This document shows positions 1 through 27,744 of a DNA stretch of 64,000 nt, one piece after another. The stretch comes from Bacteroidales bacterium (GTDB lineage Bacteria; Bacteroidota; Bacteroidia; Bacteroidales; VadinHA17), in NCBI GenBank assembly GCA_049792755.1, contig JBARBF010000042.1, forward strand, positions 14,999-78,998, given 5' to 3'. The translations under genes were made by a program, and so were the position numbers. The notes beneath the pieces were generated by a model. It was not told the DNA's origin, made no database searches, and worked only from the letters and a program-made list of their open reading frames with translations. How positions within the stretch are numbered: the stretch's first letter is position 1; each line of letters starts with the position of its first letter.

Positions 1-127
1 GGCCATCAAAAATTTGCCATCCGTTTAATCCCGGGTTTCCGGTCTGTAATACCCGGATAGACACTTTCTGAGCAATAACAGAGAATGAGATCAGATATAA
101 AAGTAAAATGAATAAAAACCTTTTCAT
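1..127 (-). CDS. 5' end of an exported protein of unknown function (partial, continues beyond the left edge)
   Basis: Reverse-strand ATG at 125-127 is followed by MKRFLFILLLYLISFSVIAQKV..., which looks like a signal peptide, and the frame stays open to position 1. It is too short to appear in the ORF track. Confidence 0.35.
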   Translation of the reverse strand, partial: MKRFLFILLLYLISFSVIAQKVSIRVLQTGNPGLNGWQIFDG

Positions 128-388
128 GAACAAATATAAACTATGTAAGAGATCAAATCTGAAATTTTCTCCATTATAAGCTATTCAATTCTGCAGAATT
201 ATTAAAAAATAATCATATCCTGTAAAACAGACAAGCAATGAATATGTTTTATTCCGGTTACCTGATACCGGTATCAATATTTATATTTAACAGAGTCTTA
301 TCCTGCGAATTAATTGAAACTTTTGCAGGCATGGTCCTTCCCAAAATATTCTGTGATTAATATAGTACTATCTGATAATCAATGCTAT

Positions 389-850
389 TTATTTTGCATC
401 TTTCAATGCTTCCTTCACCGATGCCCTGAAGATATTATACGACCAGGTAGCTCCTGATATTGCGTCAATTTTGTTAATGTCCTGTTTTACCGCCAGTTTT
501 TTCGGATAGGTTTGAACACCTTTCCAGTCATTCCTGCTTTGCTGAATATATTCAGCATTACCTTCAAAATGCTTTTCATATTCTGCATTGAAGGCTTCGT
601 GTAAGCTGGAATCTCTTATTATAAAATCAATATCGGTAAAAACACCGTTTTTAAGTGTAAATTGAACACTTCCCCAGAATGGTTCATAAATATACTTTGC
701 CCGTGACTTCCCCTTATATGTGCCATCTCTGTAAATGACAGATGTATCCTGAACTATATTTTCCTGAATTTTAGGCCTCTGAGAAAAGACTGATGTTGAT
801 AAGAATAAAGTTAAAAATATAACAGAAACGAAGGTAGCAAGTCTTTTCAT
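389..850 (-). CDS. secreted FMN-binding domain protein
   Basis: 153-aa ORF with an N-terminal signal peptide. The C-terminal DAISGATWSY motif is typical of FMN_bind domains. Confidence 0.7.
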   Translation of the reverse strand: MKRLATFVSVIFLTLFLSTSVFSQRPKIQENIVQDTSVIYRDGTYKGKSRAKYIYEPFWGSVQFTLKNGVFTDIDFIIRDSSLHEAFNAEYEKHFEGNAEYIQQSRNDWKGVQTYPKKLAVKQDINKIDAISGATWSYNIFRASVKEALKDAK

Positions 851-2158: not shown

Positions 2159-5044
2159 TTATTTATAAGAAATATTTTTCGCACCTCCAATTTTTGCATT
2201 TGATATTTTTGTTTTAAATAAAGAGAGAAGTTCTTCCGGATTAAGGGTTTGTGAAGGATTGAATTTATCAGATGACATGTATTTAAGAATTGAGCTATAT
2301 AGCTGTCTTCCTTCCGGTTTATTCTGAATCCTTTTCAGATCAGACATACATACCAGCAATTTCCCTTTTCCTACGGTGAATTCGAATATTAAGCCCAGTT
2401 TATGGTTCCTTTCAATATTATCGATAACCTGGACAAGAGGACGATAATCTTTTGGTGCATTATCCAGAATAAAAGGACGGCTGTTTTTGACAATAGGCCA
2501 CCATTGCCAGTTTGAATGAAATTCAGTTGGAAAATCACTGAATAATGGAAGTTTAGGATTGGTAAGGATTGACATAGTACCGGGCGATACTGGTTTATTA
2601 TTTGATTCTGATATACCTTTGAACATCCTGAAGTTCCAGTAATCGGGAGTAAACAAACCTCCAACTGAAAGATCCCTTGTTTCATTAAAATCAGGGAATA
2701 ATAATACCCTTGCACCATCAACAAGCTGTGACATTGTGATTTTATCCAGATTTTTTGTAACAAGAATGTTATCAGGTACCTTTGTATTTGTATAGGAGGG
2801 ATATACCCAGACAGGATAAGAGTTTTCATAAGGAGTGCCTTCGATAATGATTGAAAGAATAAGTTTCTCCGCTTTGGAAAACTTTAAAAGATCAATATTA
2901 ATTGAACCAACATTCGTTAATCCTCCCTGTACTATATTAACTGCTTCATCACCCTGGAAAACTGTTTCGCCTTTTCCGTTTTTAAGTTCCCATCTTACTG
3001 ATTGTGCTTCTAATGAGGTTTCTGAATAATTTGCTACCTGGATCTTTGCTCTGAATTGTTCATTGCTTGCCCAGCAGTATTTTTCCATAATAACTAAAGG
3101 AACAACCTTGTTGCAGAAATGACTGAATTCCTCAGGAGTTATAATTCCTTTGTTATCCATAAATGCATCGAGAAGGCCAACTAATGCAGTCCCCTGCCCA
3201 GGGAAATCCTGGAGGTCGAGAAGGTGAAAACCTCCAAAACCGGGAGTTCTCATTGCCATCTCAATATCAGCTTTATAACAAATCGCACTCAATGCTCCTG
3301 ATGCTTTGAAGAAATCTTTAGCCTGATCACTCAGATTATTCGTCTTTAGACGTTCCCTGAAGACTTCAAAATTCCATGGCTTCATAACGCCGGTATACTT
3401 TTTTATCTCAGCATAATCAGGATAAATCTGATACTGGCCAACTTCTGTTCCGACAGATGGAACCGAACATTTTGATATGGCACCTGAATAATTCCGATCA
3501 GTTGACGGATAGCGACCGTTAATATAACCACCATCGTTTGCATCGGCGAACGAGAAGGAGCCTCGTATATGTGTGCTGTATGTTGTATCCCTGTCAGCAC
3601 CAACCCGGCAAGCGGCATAATAATCCTCACCCTCAGCCTGGCCTCTGAAACCTAAATAATTATTTGATCCATAGGCCATTAGATGTCGATTGTCAATCGA
3701 TTTAAAATGATTCAGAACTTCTTTCATAATGTCAAAATCGCCAGAAAGTTCATTCCCGAGAGCAAACATTACAAATGATGCATGATTTCCATAAGTGTCA
3801 AGAATATGATCACCCTCTTTGAGAAGAAAGGTATTCAAATCAGAATTTCTGTTTTTGCTGAATCCGCCCCAGAAAGGCAGTTCCGGCTGAAGGTATATTC
3901 CTTCAATATCTGCCGCTTCAAATGCTGCGAGAGGTGGTGTCCATGAATGGAAGCGGTAAAAATTTATATTATACGATTTCGCAATTCTGAATACTTTTTG
4001 CCAGCCTTTAACATCCATTGGAGGATAACCTGTTAACGGGAAAACACAGGCATCATGCTTTCCGCGAAGAAATGTCTTTATTCCGTTTACTGTAAACTGA
4101 GTTCCCTGTGTGGAAAACTTACGCATTCCAAAATCAAGGGAGGTATTATCGAGAAGCCTGTTACTTTTCAGACTGACAGCCAGTTTGTATAAAGCCGGAT
4201 TAAACTCGCTCCAAAGGAGGGTTTTGCTACCCATGGTATAAGTAACTTCAATTATGTTTTCACCTTTCCTGAGTGAAACCGGATATGACTTTGGTGGGAC
4301 ACTGTGCTTGACATCTGTATTCCATGCATCAGCTTTCATGATCAGATTTGCCTTTCCGGCATAGCCTTCAGGATTAGAGATTTTCACCTTTACCGTGATT
4401 TTTTTCAGGACGATATCGGGATAGACCTGAACTGTTTCAATGTGAACCGGGTTATATGCCTCGAGACAGAATTTACCGAGAATCCCATTCCAGTTGCTTT
4501 GTGTATGCTCTGTCCAGGCATGTGAACCTGTCACACCTTCCGGTACAGAACTGTTATCATTATTTACCAGAATTGTAAGTAAGTGTTTCCCCGGAGAAAG
4601 ATGGCCTGTAAGATTATAGTACTGTGCTGTAAGTAAATCATTGCTGCTCCCTATGAAATAATTATCAACCCAAACCTGCGTTGGTTTGGTCCTCTCCATC
4701 ATTAACCTGATATAATTACCGTTCCAGGTATCAGGGATAACAATCTCCTTTTGATACCATGCCATACCGGCGTACATCATTTCACGCGAAAGCCTCATAG
4801 TTTCCAGTCTGTTGGTATTAGGAATCCCTTTTTTGTTTTCATCAAGTGTCCCCGGTAGTTTCACTGAATCGGAAAGATTCCTGCTATACCACTTTTCACG
4901 AATACCTTTCCTGGCTGTATCCAACGAAAACTTCCAGGAACCGTTAAGCAGTATTGTATTATGAATGGGGACAAATGATCCTCTGTTACAGGATGTTCCC
5001 ACAAGTACTAATGCTATTAAGAAGTATTTAAATCTATAAAACAT
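2159..5044 (-). CDS. glycoside hydrolase family 2 protein (beta-galactosidase/glucuronidase-like)
   Basis: 961-aa ORF with a signal peptide. GH2-like motifs are present: LWSEFNPALY, NFYRFHSWTPP, FALGNEL. Confidence 0.75.
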   Translation of the reverse strand: MFYRFKYFLIALVLVGTSCNRGSFVPIHNTILLNGSWKFSLDTARKGIREKWYSRNLSDSVKLPGTLDENKKGIPNTNRLETMRLSREMMYAGMAWYQKEIVIPDTWNGNYIRLMMERTKPTQVWVDNYFIGSSNDLLTAQYYNLTGHLSPGKHLLTILVNNDNSSVPEGVTGSHAWTEHTQSNWNGILGKFCLEAYNPVHIETVQVYPDIVLKKITVKVKISNPEGYAGKANLIMKADAWNTDVKHSVPPKSYPVSLRKGENIIEVTYTMGSKTLLWSEFNPALYKLAVSLKSNRLLDNTSLDFGMRKFSTQGTQFTVNGIKTFLRGKHDACVFPLTGYPPMDVKGWQKVFRIAKSYNINFYRFHSWTPPLAAFEAADIEGIYLQPELPFWGGFSKNRNSDLNTFLLKEGDHILDTYGNHASFVMFALGNELSGDFDIMKEVLNHFKSIDNRHLMAYGSNNYLGFRGQAEGEDYYAACRVGADRDTTYSTHIRGSFSFADANDGGYINGRYPSTDRNYSGAISKCSVPSVGTEVGQYQIYPDYAEIKKYTGVMKPWNFEVFRERLKTNNLSDQAKDFFKASGALSAICYKADIEMAMRTPGFGGFHLLDLQDFPGQGTALVGLLDAFMDNKGIITPEEFSHFCNKVVPLVIMEKYCWASNEQFRAKIQVANYSETSLEAQSVRWELKNGKGETVFQGDEAVNIVQGGLTNVGSINIDLLKFSKAEKLILSIIIEGTPYENSYPVWVYPSYTNTKVPDNILVTKNLDKITMSQLVDGARVLLFPDFNETRDLSVGGLFTPDYWNFRMFKGISESNNKPVSPGTMSILTNPKLPLFSDFPTEFHSNWQWWPIVKNSRPFILDNAPKDYRPLVQVIDNIERNHKLGLIFEFTVGKGKLLVCMSDLKRIQNKPEGRQLYSSILKYMSSDKFNPSQTLNPEELLSLFKTKISNAKIGGAKNISYK

Positions 5045-23921: not shown

Positions 23922-24242
23922 ATGGATATAGTAACATTAAGAGACTATTGCATCTCAAAAAAAGGAGCAACCGAAAGCTTCCCATTCGGAGAAGATACTC
24001 TGGTATTTAAAGCCGGTGAAAAAATATTTGCACTGGTTAATCTCGATGGCGACCTAAGCATAAACCTGAAATGTGATCCAACTCTTGCAGTTGAACTAAG
24101 GGAAAGGTACTCCTCAGTGACTAGCGGTTATCACATGAATAAAAAACACTGGAATACTGTTTTACTTGACGGATCTGTACCTGATAAAGAGGTATTTTCA
24201 TGGATCGATCATTCTTACGATCTGATTGCAGGTAAGCATTAG
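23922..24242 (+). CDS. MmcQ/YjbR family DNA-binding protein (3' end rebuilt by an insertion)
   Basis: 106 aa with ...YHMNKKHWNTVLLDG... typical of the YjbR fold family. Its last 83+ nt are duplicated at 27643-27725. Confidence 0.75.
   Translation: MDIVTLRDYCISKKGATESFPFGEDTLVFKAGEKIFALVNLDGDLSINLKCDPTLAVELRERYSSVTSGYHMNKKHWNTVLLDGSVPDKEVFSWIDHSYDLIAGKH
24132..24214 (+). repeat. left copy of a perfect 83-bp direct repeat (att-like), inside the yjbR-family CDS
   Basis: Manual alignment shows it is identical to 27643-27725 (cacatgaataaaaaacactgg...tggatcgatcattc). Confidence 0.9.
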
Positions 24243-24286
24243 ATTACAACAATTGGCCGGAATAATTCTGTTTTTTCCTGAGCTTT

Positions 24287-24553
24287 AATATTACGGTGCT
24301 CTGCACCTTTGGTTCTGCTTTTCAAATGAATTTCTACAAATATTTCGCAGCTCTGCTGCTTTTCAAAATACTCATTCGGTTGAAACATTCTGACTATTTG
24401 AATGTAAATTAGTACGGTGGAGATATGAAGGTGCAGAGCACCATAATATTTGTAGATAATTGTCTGTTGAAGATTTAAAGGTGCAGAGCACAGAAATATT
24501 TGTAGCAGACAAATTATTGTCGGAAAAGAGAAGGTGTAGAGCACCGAAATATT
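24287..24553. repeat. array of five ~25-29-nt hairpin-plus-tail repeats (2 inverted, 3 direct; 50-53 bp phasing)
   Basis: Unit consensus is AAGGTGCAGAGCACCnnAATATTTGTAG. Copies lie at 24287-24309(-), 24334-24362(-), 24427-24455(+), 24477-24505(+) and 24530-24553(+). Confidence 0.85.
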
Positions 24554-24730
24554 ATATTAAGTGCTTGATTAATATATATTACCTGAATCAATCCCCAATC
24601 ATTCAGCAGAATTTAATGTGATTAATAACGTATTAGGCATTATAAGACTGGTTGTTTGGTTTATTTATAACAGGAGTCAATATTAATTACAAAATATTTC
24701 TAAAACTATTATGATATTTAAAAAATACCA

Positions 24731-24744
24731 TCTACATTTGTAGA
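24731..24744. promoter_or_regulatory. candidate BlaI/CopY-type operator (TCTACA-TT-TGTAGA) overlapping a TAnnTTTG -7 promoter box
   Basis: A perfect 6-2-6 palindrome lies 26 nt upstream of the blaI-like ATG. Its core, TACAttTGTA, fits the TACAnnTGTA box of this repressor family. TACATTTG (24733-24740) fits the Bacteroidota -7 consensus. Confidence 0.5.
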
Positions 24745-24769
24745 GTTTATAAATCAAACGTAGAGTAGC

Positions 24770-25147
24770 ATGCATCTCACAAACGCTGAAGAACAAATTA
24801 TGAAACTGCTTTGGAGACTAGACAAAGCGTTTATTCGTGATCTTCTAAATGAATTTCCGGATCCAAAACCAGCCCCGACAACTGTACTCACATTATTAAA
24901 GCGAATGATTGATAAAGGATTTGTCAGTTATAAGCTGTACGGGAATTCTAGAGAATACTACCCTATGATCAAAAAGACTGATTACTTTTCAGATCATATT
25001 AATGTATTGATCAAAGACTTCTTTAACAATTCAACTGCTCAGTTCGCCTCATTTTTTACAAATGAGACAGATATGAGTCCTGAAGAATTAAAAGAACTAC
25101 GAGATTTAGTAGATGAAAAAATTGAATCAAAAAAGGTGAAAAAATGA
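24770..25147 (+). CDS. BlaI/MecI/CopY family transcriptional repressor
   Basis: 125 aa with a winged-helix N-terminus (LTNAEEQIMKLLW...TVLTLLKRMIDKGFV) typical of the Penicillinase_R family. The ATGA overlaps the downstream M56 gene. Confidence 0.85.
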   Translation: MHLTNAEEQIMKLLWRLDKAFIRDLLNEFPDPKPAPTTVLTLLKRMIDKGFVSYKLYGNSREYYPMIKKTDYFSDHINVLIKDFFNNSTAQFASFFTNETDMSPEELKELRDLVDEKIESKKVKK

Positions 25148-27171
25148 TAGCTTATATTTTAAAATCAAGTCTAAGTCTGTTATTTTTATTCGGACTTTAC
25201 TGGTTCATTCTGAGAAAAGAGAAACTTTTCACATTTAACAGGTATTTCCTTATATTCTCAATCCTCTTATCTGTTATCATTCATTTTATATCAATCCCCG
25301 TAGATATTCTGGGAAACAATGTCCAGAGAAATGTTATTACTGTGTTAAATAGTAACCTTTCTGTATTTAATACCGAACAAAATATAATTAATGATATATC
25401 ATATCTTCCGATTACTGAGGACCAAACTACCGATGAGGTGCATCCTTCTTTTATCACCCTCTCGAAAATTTTGTTATTTCTATACATTTCAGGGGTTATT
25501 GTACTCATGTCTCGTTTCATACGGAATATATACCTCATCTCCAAACAGATAAGAATGTCTGAAAATGCTATATATTCTGGAAAAAGACTAGTTCTAATCG
25601 AAGATCTGATTAATCCGTATTGCTTTTACAAAACCATATTCGTAAACAAACACGACTATCTTAATAGAAAGATCGGAACAGAGTTACTAGCGCATGAGCT
25701 GGAACATATAAAGCAATCCCATTCAATTGATATATTATTCCTTGAATTAGTCCGAATCGTTTACTGGTTTAATCCGATTCTTATTTTGTATAGTAGAGCT
25801 ATCCGAGTTAATCATGAATATATGGCTGATAATGGCGTCCTCAGGGAATCTCTCGATATAAAGAGCTATGCCGATAAACTATTAAGTTTTATTAGCTGTA
25901 AAAGAAATATACCATTAACAAGTGAATTTAATCACTCACTAACGAAAAGGAGATTGCTAATGATAACAAAACCCAAGTCTAAAAGTGCCATTTACGGATT
26001 AAGAATCACATTGACTCTATGTATGATATTAGTATTCTTCCTTTTCTTTAGTTTTAAACCATCGAATGCACAACCAATTATCTCATTAACAAATCATAAA
26101 GATGCTATAGATACATTACTGATTGATGAAGATTCTTTAAAAACCAGCAAGACTATTTTGAAACTTACGACTCAGTCATCCAATGTAATTGACAAGAAGG
26201 TTACATACACCTCCTCAGGATATATTAAACGAGATACAATAAATCAAATGATTATACTTGTCGATAATGCCATTGTAAGCTTTGGTGAGATTACTATTAA
26301 AGCCGATTCTATTGTTTTTAATAAAAGAACAAACCAAGTATATGCAATTGGGAGGCAAGGTAGATCTGGTACGATTATTGGTAAGCCAATCTTTAAAGAA
26401 GGTTCTCAGGATATGGAAGCTGATGAGATTACATATAGCTTGAACACACGAAGAGCAGTTGTAAAAAATGTCAAAGCACAAGTAAACATAAAACTTAATG
26501 ATAGAGGATCTCTTGTTAATTCCCCCACTCCTAAACAGATTGATAAATCAAATAATGATGCCACAAAATCGATTGGGAATGAGAATATGTCAACTCTCCC
26601 TGAAAATGAAAACCCAGAACTATTTCCAATTAATAAAGATGAGTTTACTGAAATAAAAAGAAATTTTGGTGAAAAAAATATATATTCAAACACATCGGAT
26701 TTTTTGTTTTTAAACTCTGATCAATTAAAACCATTAGGTATTGAACTTAATAAGGATGGGGTGTTTTACAAAAACCTTAATCCCAACTGGAAACAAGATA
26801 AGGTTAGGTACTCTTGTTTAAGTTTCTATTGTAGTAGCAACAATTATTTGACTACAAATCATTACTCAGAGACAGATGTAATCAAAGCTAGAAACAGAAA
26901 TGAAAGGTTGTTAGTTAAGATGGAAATAACAAGAAATGATTTTTACCCAATATTAATAGGGAACACTAAAGGAAAGCAAGGTTTAAATAATGAAACCTTG
27001 GCGGAAGATTTAAAGCTTTTCCCTGTTGCCATTTGCATGAGTGAAACGAAATTGCGAAATAGAAAAGATACTATCGTTGTATGGTTCAAACCTTCAGAAG
27101 CTTTGAAGAAAGCATTACCAGAGAATGTAAAGATTGAAGACTATTTGAAACTGCCGATAAGAACGAAATAA
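25144..27171 (+). CDS. BlaR1-like M56 family membrane metalloprotease/sensor with an unassigned ~370-aa C-terminal domain
   Basis: 675 aa with N-terminal TM segments, an HELEH zinc motif (nt 25693-25707), a further TM segment, and then an extracytoplasmic region I cannot assign to a penicillin-binding sensor fold. Confidence 0.8.
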   Translation: MIAYILKSSLSLLFLFGLYWFILRKEKLFTFNRYFLIFSILLSVIIHFISIPVDILGNNVQRNVITVLNSNLSVFNTEQNIINDISYLPITEDQTTDEVHPSFITLSKILLFLYISGVIVLMSRFIRNIYLISKQIRMSENAIYSGKRLVLIEDLINPYCFYKTIFVNKHDYLNRKIGTELLAHELEHIKQSHSIDILFLELVRIVYWFNPILILYSRAIRVNHEYMADNGVLRESLDIKSYADKLLSFISCKRNIPLTSEFNHSLTKRRLLMITKPKSKSAIYGLRITLTLCMILVFFLFFSFKPSNAQPIISLTNHKDAIDTLLIDEDSLKTSKTILKLTTQSSNVIDKKVTYTSSGYIKRDTINQMIILVDNAIVSFGEITIKADSIVFNKRTNQVYAIGRQGRSGTIIGKPIFKEGSQDMEADEITYSLNTRRAVVKNVKAQVNIKLNDRGSLVNSPTPKQIDKSNNDATKSIGNENMSTLPENENPELFPINKDEFTEIKRNFGEKNIYSNTSDFLFLNSDQLKPLGIELNKDGVFYKNLNPNWKQDKVRYSCLSFYCSSNNYLTTNHYSETDVIKARNRNERLLVKMEITRNDFYPILIGNTKGKQGLNNETLAEDLKLFPVAICMSETKLRNRKDTIVVWFKPSEALKKALPENVKIEDYLKLPIRTK

Positions 27172-27642: not shown

Positions 27643-27725
27643 CACATGAATAAAAAACACTGGAATACTGTTTTACTTGACGGATCTGTACCTGATAAAG
27701 AGGTATTTTCATGGATCGATCATTC
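27643..27725 (+). repeat. right copy of the perfect 83-bp direct repeat (att-like)
   Basis: Identical to 24132-24214. Confidence 0.9.
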
Positions 27726-27744
27726 ATATGACCTGGTAAAATGA
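27646..27744 (+). pseudogene. orphan 3' fragment of the yjbR/mmcQ-family gene (probable ancestral 3' end)
   Basis: Reads MNKKHWNTVLLDGSVPDKEVFSWIDHSYDLVK* in frame. There is no upstream remainder of the gene and no obvious RBS or promoter. Confidence 0.7.

Follow-up and report, generated by a model that had tools for sequence, protein, structure and literature searches.

The biology of repetitive extragenic palindromic (REP) sequences and of their REP-associated tyrosine transposases (RAYTs) has been worked out almost wholly in Proteobacteria, and REPs are classically present in more than 100 copies per genome. In canonical REPs the tetranucleotide GTAG stands directly 5' of the palindrome (PMC8266576). 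GTAG-tagged repeats have been reported from Proteobacteria, Cyanobacteria, Chloroflexi and the PVC superphylum, and from Bacteroidetes CGTC-tagged repeats only (Di Nocera et al., 2013; PMC3733652). Subclass 1.2 of the TnpA_Y1 transposases was described as a low-copy group, found mostly in Cyanobacteria and Bacteroidetes, without properties of an insertion sequence (IS) and with the entry 'REP: no'; its members are recognised by a length of about 148 aa, a specific C-terminal tail and the motifs DH[IV]H, WQ and Y---Q--HH (Quentin et al., 2018; PMC6006769). The present analysis concerns an array of five short hairpin repeats that lie in the 527-bp gap between a yjbR-family gene and a blaI-like gene, in a stretch of 64,000 nucleotides from a Bacteroidales bacterium (assembly GCA_049792755.1, contig JBARBF010000042.1, positions 14,999 to 78,998; this whole stretch is called the window). 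The array is very probably a REP/BIME-like cluster (BIME, bacterial interspersed mosaic element) of a family that is dispersed in Bacteroidota and tied to a Y1 transposase of subclass 1.2.

The unit of this family is a short hairpin of single-stranded DNA (ssDNA), composed of a 5-bp stem, an AGA-like triplet loop, two nucleotides and the tail AATATT(TGTAG). The window consensus reads AAG, the stem, AGA, the complementary stem, two nucleotides and AATATT; three inner units carry the TGTAG extension, and the two outermost units end at AATATT. The five copies, which an earlier note on this DNA had located from the sequence, were confirmed at their coordinates (Table 1), with same-strand spacings of 50, 53 and 52 bp. 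When the 15-mer core was searched with up to three mismatches, the window gave five matches where 0.85 would be expected; four of the five lie within the array region. The predicted ssDNA folds of the window hairpins range from -2.6 to -5.0 kcal/mol. The stem had been thought to be preserved in every copy, and this holds for copies 1, 2, 3 and 5; copy 4 forms just four pairs, a defect overlooked earlier, and has the weakest fold (-2.6 kcal/mol).

Selection on the stem was evaluated with 150 units picked by their tail alone, so that pairing played no part in the choice and circularity was avoided. In this set 90.5% of the stem cells are paired, versus 66.8% in shuffled sets, and there are 136 double-sided stem changes versus 33. 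The covariation score is 0.539 versus 0.143 in shuffles; none of 500 shuffles reached it, controls slid along the sequence gave at most 0.156, and covariation is present at all five stem pairs. The family thus passes through GGTGC/GCACC, GCGGC/GCCGC, GCAGC/GCTGC, GCCAC/GTGGC, GCTGC/GCAGC and GGTAC/GTACC by paired changes. The stem structure of the unit is under selection, as in the hairpin-forming palindromes of REPs, and the earlier note was right both in seeing compensatory changes, which hold throughout the family, and in concluding from them that a hairpin is selected.

The distribution of the unit was examined in a collection of species-representative genomes with the exact pattern AAGGTGYAGAGCACNNNAATATT, which covers four of the five window units. 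More than 119 stretches matched, a lower bound; the matches are chromosomal and the units extragenic, and the taxa among the matches listed are nearly all Bacteroidota, of several classes; the named host groups listed are Bacteroidales, Lentimicrobiaceae, Dyadobacter, Chitinophaga, Saprospiraceae, Marinifilum, Arcicella and Sphingobacteriaceae. Also among the matches listed, up to six contigs of a single metagenome-assembled genome (MAG) carry the pattern, and the density in the window is one cluster in 64 kb. A search of viral contigs for the units gave no match. Three matches bear labels from outside Bacteroidota (loci are cited here by their L numbers): L082 and L120, both in SABY01, a MAG labelled Clostridia, and L083 in JAADEM01, a MAG labelled Chlorobiota; these could reflect a binning or labelling error or true spread to a sister phylum. 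Of the roles considered earlier, the one in which the array is a local representative of a REP-like family spread through the genome is supported by the more than 119 unrelated chromosomal places found across Bacteroidota and by the recurrent Y1 neighbour described below.

The arrays have a fixed architecture. A loose scan of the fetched loci, which is noisy for singleton units and was used for the spacing histogram and for the position of a sixth unit in the window (confirmed by alignment with a syntenic relative), gave a sharp peak of same-orientation spacing at 51–52 bp. Units are arranged in blocks of one orientation, with one point of inversion per array (--++, --+++ and similar), and alternation of the BIME type was not found. 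If F denotes a unit with the full tail and t a unit that ends at AATATT, the layout seen most often, in 22 cases, is -t -F +F +t, and the window reads -t -F +F +F +t. A variant stem is present on one inner unit in 19 of the 22 canonical arrays, and the tail is conserved across the family whatever the neighbouring genes. A guide or CRISPR (clustered regularly interspaced short palindromic repeats) array was also considered and rejected: both orientations occur within one array, the spacers are conserved between genomes, and the sole recurrent neighbour is the Y1 gene.

This neighbour emerged when all open reading frames (ORFs) of the fetched loci were clustered by family. The only recurrent one, present in 15 loci, encodes a Y1 transposase of about 155 aa; in 13 of these an array is no more than 450 nt away. 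In several loci (L007, L039, L062, L063 and L079) there is an overlap between its stop codon and the AATATT of a terminal unit, and in L062 inverted doublets bracket the gene (+F+t, Y1 gene, -t-F), as in REPtrons, the units formed by REPs and their transposase gene. The protein matches Pfam Y1_Tnp with 94 bits. It is 153–160 aa long, with a conserved C-terminal tail EEY...FEFF and the invariant residues D54 H55 H57, W95 Q96 and Y115 Q119 H122 H123, which correspond to DH[IV]H, WQ and Y---Q--HH; by these published criteria of motif, length, tail and taxon, rather than by the hidden Markov model of the authors, it can be assigned to TnpA_Y1 subclass 1.2.

The association was measured independently in 80 metagenome loci picked solely by their similarity to the Y1 protein (50–94% identity), with a detector that accepts any perfect 5–6-bp hairpin followed by the tail with at most two mismatches in the tail. 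A unit lies within 160 nt of the Y1 gene in 66 of the 80 loci, versus 9 of 1770 background windows (0.5%). Where the Y1 protein is at least 75% identical, units stand just downstream of the stop codon in 19 of 21 loci and just upstream of the start in 5; at 60–75% identity the corresponding counts are 22 and 24 of 35, and the layout of this group is +F +t, gene, -t -F. In genes 50–58% identical to the query, the doublet layout and the tail AATATTT[G/A]TAG are retained and the stems are others, GTCCC/GGGAC and ACTCC/GGAGT, which means that the stem differs from one protein clade to another and the tail remains the same. A clade-specific stem with a constant tail is the pattern that one would expect if the repeat were recognised by this enzyme. 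At the Y1 gene the variant stem is found on the 3'-side unit and GGTGC on the 5'-side units, and this matches the asymmetry of the gene-less arrays. The standard module consists of a variant-stem arm that abuts a gene 3' end, a variable centre and a GGTGC arm in 51–52-bp head-to-tail register that ends at AATATT, and the window array is a copy, minus the Y1 gene, of the module that stands 3' of that gene in related Bacteroidales.

Remnants of the Y1 gene are also seen. Its 3' end abuts arrays that lack an intact gene in L003 (3469–3648) and L021 (263–340), both detected by tblastn, and a flank resembling it was seen by eye in the array alignment of L002 (about 3618–3660); these may be either decayed gene copies or a gene end carried along with the array. 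L002, from the same MAG as L039, further holds a divergent Y1 paralogue (68–541, minus strand), 39% identical to the array-associated protein, about 3 kb from the nearest array and free of flanking units.

The enzymology of the partner admits another explanation, namely that an active, multi-copy IS200-type element gave rise to the units, as its ends or as miniature forms of it, and that the Y1 enzyme belongs to an ordinary selfish IS rather than to a domesticated, single-copy system of the REP/RAYT type. The protein passes the IS200/IS605 equivalog of NCBIfam (NF033573, 65.5 bits against a cut-off of 55), its closest solved structures are IS transposases, that of ISDra2 TnpA first, and the 3'-end fragments of L003 and L021, with the similar flank of L002, also speak for it. 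The ends of IS200/IS605 elements such as IS608 and ISDra2, however, are in direct orientation, and the units that flank the Y1 gene are inverted. Moreover, subclass 1.2 has low copy numbers and no IS properties (PMC6006769), and the arrays keep their locus across relatives of about 82–88% protein identity. An ordinary IS is therefore considered improbable as the source of the units.

If the array is instead a REP/BIME-like cluster served by the subclass 1.2 enzyme, the Y1 protein would most likely recognise the folded hairpin together with the conserved tail on ssDNA, for example at replication forks; it would thus act on a folded single strand, as do the enzymes of IS200/IS605 elements and those associated with REPs (PMC8266576). 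By cutting and rejoining at the units the enzyme would seed arrays, homogenise them, and expand or contract them. Changes in unit number, such as the difference of one 52-bp unit between the window and its syntenic relative, may also come from slippage. Array growth by unit transposition and growth by slippage would produce the same register.

A bolder version of this mechanism, possible though doubtful, is that the 51–52-nt unit is itself a minimal single-hairpin 'peel-and-paste' element mobilised by the subclass 1.2 enzyme. One hairpin would serve as left and right end at once, and cleavage and insertion would take place beside the AATATT/GTAG motif, which each copy would regenerate; such regeneration would explain the strict head-to-tail register and the arrays that end at AATATT. 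The polarity of the arrays with respect to the upstream gene would then arise because a single template strand is the target at the replication fork. The suggestion comes from the distances between hairpin and GTAG (about 9 nt on the 3' side and about 25 nt on the 5' side), which we take to resemble the right-end and left-end geometry of IS608; slippage explains the register equally well.

The position of the arrays relative to genes has its own regularity. Of the 60 arrays with both neighbours called, 23 lie between (-,-) genes, 20 between (+,+) genes and 17 between convergent genes, and none lies between divergent genes; hence every array adjoins a gene 3' end, which argues against a promoter or operator role. 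The variant-stem arm faces a gene 3' end in 27 of 33 arrays, and the all-GGTGC arm has no facing bias (16 versus 14). The window obeys this polarity, its GCAGC arm facing yjbR. The Bacteroidetes -7 box has the consensus TAnnTTTG; AATATTTG does not fit it by inspection, and the tail as a promoter was discarded on this ground together with the absence of arrays between divergent genes.

The same location suggests a further alternative, in which the units are transcribed RNA elements (a 3'-untranslated-region stabiliser, a terminator or a small-RNA family), selection acts on the RNA and the link to Y1 is secondary. The arrays are always beside a gene 3' end, the stem covaries, and the first hairpin, when read in the sense of yjbR, has a T-rich run after it and was flagged as terminator-like. 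Against this, units lie on both strands of one array, so that no single transcript has all of them in the same sense; the 5-bp stem is weak; and the tight bracketing of Y1 genes, with stems that change with the protein clade, is not expected of a pure RNA element. Rfam at gathering thresholds gave no match in the whole window, and at a permissive threshold over 24150–24800 it gave only chance-level matches (E >= 0.5). Purely RNA-level elements thus seem very improbable, and the Y1-linked cluster remains preferred; within it, the first hairpin on the yjbR transcript may act, by analogy with classical REPs, as a weak terminator or 3'-end stabiliser.

Several points weigh against a REP/BIME-like cluster and are best considered together. 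The GTAG motif stands 3' of the hairpin, after GnAATATTT, and not directly 5' as in classical REPs, and the units run head to tail and do not alternate as they do in BIMEs. The Y1 protein reaches 27.7 bits against NCBIfam NF047646 (REP-associated tyrosine transposase), below the cut-off of 80, and has the motif Y---Q--HH instead of Y---NP, so that it falls outside class-2 RAYTs. No Y1 gene is present in the 64-kb window. The gene calls of the loci are simple longest-ORF calls, and cleavage, mobility and a terminator role of the units are all inferred.

Table 1. Positions of the units and of the features that surround them in the window
Feature	Position	Strand	Remarks
yjbR-family gene	23922–24242	+	Pfam YjbR, 113.9 bits; from its 3' end it is 44 nt to the first base of copy 1
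93-bp direct repeat, left copy	24132–24224		3' end of yjbR (residues 71–102)
ORF of 101 aa	24239–24544	-	GTG start; overlies the array; no Pfam match
Copy 1, terminal unit (t) of left arm	24287–24310	-	hairpin GGTGC-AGA-GCACC 24295–24307; AATATT 24287–24292; without TGTAG
Copy 2, inner full unit (F) of left arm	24334–24362	-	variant stem GCAGC-AGA-GCTGC 24347–24359; full tail AATATTTGTAG (CTACAAATATT on the + strand, 24334–24344)
Degenerate unit	24376–24406	+	GGTTG-AAA-CATTC-TG-ACTATTTGAATG; in phase, 52 bp before copy 3
Copy 3, first full unit of right arm	24428–24455	+	hairpin GGTGC/AGA/GCACC 24430–24442; tail AATATTTGTAG 24445–24455
Copy 4, second full unit of right arm	24478–24505	+	GGTGC/AGA/GCACA; full tail; one stem mismatch, four pairs only
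Copy 5, terminal unit (t) of right arm	24531–24553	+	GGTGT-AGA-GCACC 24533–24545 (G·T pair); AATATT 24548–24553
Perfect palindrome TCTACATTTGTAGA	24731–24744	.	26 nt upstream of blaI; overlaps TAcaTTTG box 24733–24740; not a family member
blaI-like gene	24770–25147	+	Pfam Penicillinase_R; start codon at 24770
blaR1-like gene	25144–27171		downstream of blaI
93-bp direct repeat, right copy	27643–27735		beyond blaR1; runs into a different short C-terminus

The history of the locus can be followed in two relatives. In L035, from an uncultured Bacteroidales MAG, yjbR, the array, blaI and blaR occur in the order of the window, and YjbR and BlaI have 84–88% protein identity to their window counterparts. 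The L035 array has exactly one 52-bp unit fewer; its units are 77–100% identical to those of the window (copy 1, which folds with -4.5 kcal/mol, is 100% identical to its counterpart), and the neighbouring non-coding DNA is about 70% identical. The missing repeat of about 52 bp is that of copy 4. In L102, yjbR is followed by three tandem modules, each a yjbR 3' fragment with an array, and then by a C1 peptidase gene, with no blaI-blaR1. The 93-bp direct repeat that brackets the array and blaI-blaR1 in the window, 96.8% identical between its copies and formerly regarded as att-like, is on this comparison a duplication of the yjbR 3' end such as is found with arrays at other loci. The array itself appears to belong to the yjbR 3' region and to be older than the splits of these species. 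The window cluster is probably a passive, vertically inherited resident of this region, and its local role is ordinary.

Details of individual units agree with this alignment. The degenerate unit, for which DNA folding no longer predicts a hairpin, is conserved in L035 with 84% identity. The earlier note had placed a sixth, tail-only copy at 24687–24700; a degenerate, in-phase sixth unit does exist, at the position given in Table 1, and the stretch at 24687–24700 has no hairpin and is not conserved in L035. After the AATATT of copy 5 comes ATATTA and not TGTAG, and its ending AATATTATATTA is also present in L002, L021, L025 and L102. The spacers at 24456–24466 and 24506–24517, which flank copy 4, have near reverse-complementary starts, ATAATTGTCTG and CAGACAAATTAT, so that copy 4 sits inside a longer inverted repeat; the repeat of about 52 bp missing from L035 is the one that carries copy 4. 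The 101-aa ORF over the array almost certainly arises from the repeats and is not a true gene, and it bears out the link, suggested earlier, between such repeats and spurious small ORFs.

Two element-specific roles had been proposed for the array on account of its surroundings. The first made the units arm-type or accessory sites of a recombinase; the segment to be moved would be blaI-blaR1, with the 93-bp yjbR-3' repeats as its boundaries, and the array does lie just inside the left repeat, with a spacing of about five helical turns that would suit protein phasing. No recombinase gene is found in the segment, units occur at more than 119 unrelated loci, and L102 has arrays and yjbR-3' repeats with no blaI-blaR1 to be moved; this explanation is close to refuted.

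The second proposal took the units for auxiliary half-operators of the BlaI-like repressor, since the tail had been found identical to half of the palindrome upstream of blaI. The 8-mer TTTGTAGA is indeed common to both, yet its four occurrences in the window are at chance frequency (3.2 expected). A tblastn search of BlaI and BlaR1 against all loci retrieved only the syntenic L035 and one more locus, L026, in which the array stands 97 nt upstream of a BlaI homologue of 36% identity; one non-syntenic case in about 135 arrays is near the rough chance estimate of about 0.7, which was not computed with a tool and assumes some 10 blaI-like genes per genome of about 4000 genes. Furthermore, the tail is kept throughout the family regardless of neighbours, and the units carry one half-site-like 8-mer in place of the dyad (TACA...TGTA beside a blaI-type gene) that characterises BlaI/MecI operators and that a BlaI dimer needs. 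A half-operator function is hence scarcely credible, and the array is without a specific link to blaI-blaR1. Wide dispersal of the unit, which the earlier note had itself set against both of these roles, is what was found. The palindrome, whose core is identical in L035, is likely to be an autoregulatory BlaI operator on the blaI promoter. For the annotation of the window this means that the intergenic repeats need no connection to blaI-blaR1 and that the likely BlaI operator is a separate palindrome.

Other observations were made along the way. Between L035 (5726–6601) and the window (25144–27171) the BlaR1-like proteins align over residues 19–311 only, with 54% identity, compared with 84% for BlaI, and the C-terminal sensor part of BlaR1 appears to have been replaced or to have strongly diverged. 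In three loci, whole arrays have been amplified in tandem along with several hundred bp of flanking DNA (L066, 2076–4143, a 616-bp period repeated four times; L084, 3375–4631, about 422 bp; L102, 1908–3148, about 480–530 bp), and no long ORFs are contained in these tracts. Lentimicrobiaceae MAGs have other short conserved hairpin-like sequences just beyond the arrays (right flanks of L004, L019, L058 and L107; flanks that read CTGAGTTTTTCAGCAG at L006, L082, L105–L107 and L120); they could derive from conserved ends of genes, from terminators or from a second family of repeats.

The family, with its conserved tail, clade-specific stems and 51–52-bp register, offers a candidate DNA substrate for the orphan enzymes of subclass 1.2, and, for annotators of Bacteroidota genomes, its unit pattern accounts for many puzzling intergenic repeats and for many false ORFs. 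Should the unit prove to be a mobile single-hairpin element, a Y1 subclass described without repeats or IS properties would drive a repeat system that spans several classes of Bacteroidota. In the literature on REPs in Bacteroidota no description of this repeat family was found, part of the search having been too generic to inform, and a full-text search with the unit strings returned unrelated primer matches only.

Compared with known systems, the family is closest in organisation to the REP/BIME repeats of Proteobacteria and their RAYT (TnpA_REP) genes. As in REPtrons, short extragenic hairpin repeats are both dispersed and clustered, carry a conserved GTAG tetranucleotide and are located at gene 3' ends; a small gene of the HUH/Y1 type lies between inverted repeat copies; the stems vary with the protein clade, and loci persist across related species. 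The family departs from classical REPs and BIMEs in three ways: in where the tag stands (on the 3' side, 9 nt away from the stem), in the register (head-to-tail blocks of 51–52 bp with one inversion point) and in the enzyme subclass, as its Y1 protein is not a class-2 RAYT. In addition, its tail is conserved across several classes of one phylum, unlike that of classical, lineage-specific REPs. The resemblance to IS200/IS605 elements (IS608, ISDra2), the closest in sequence and in solved structures, extends to subterminal hairpins with short motifs at a fixed distance, but in this family the flanking hairpins are inverted and not direct, gene-less arrays of units far outnumber the Y1 gene, and no tnpB was seen beside these Y1 genes, although no search was aimed at it. 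The enzyme itself, with DH[IV]H, WQ and Y---Q--HH, a length of about 150–160 aa, a conserved C-terminal tail and hosts among Bacteroidetes, resembles TnpA_Y1 subclass 1.2 (Quentin et al., 2018; PMC6006769), and it differs from the subclass as published ('REP: no') in that the Y1 genes have at their flanks doublets of the hairpin-plus-tail unit, which are present at other places in the genomes too.

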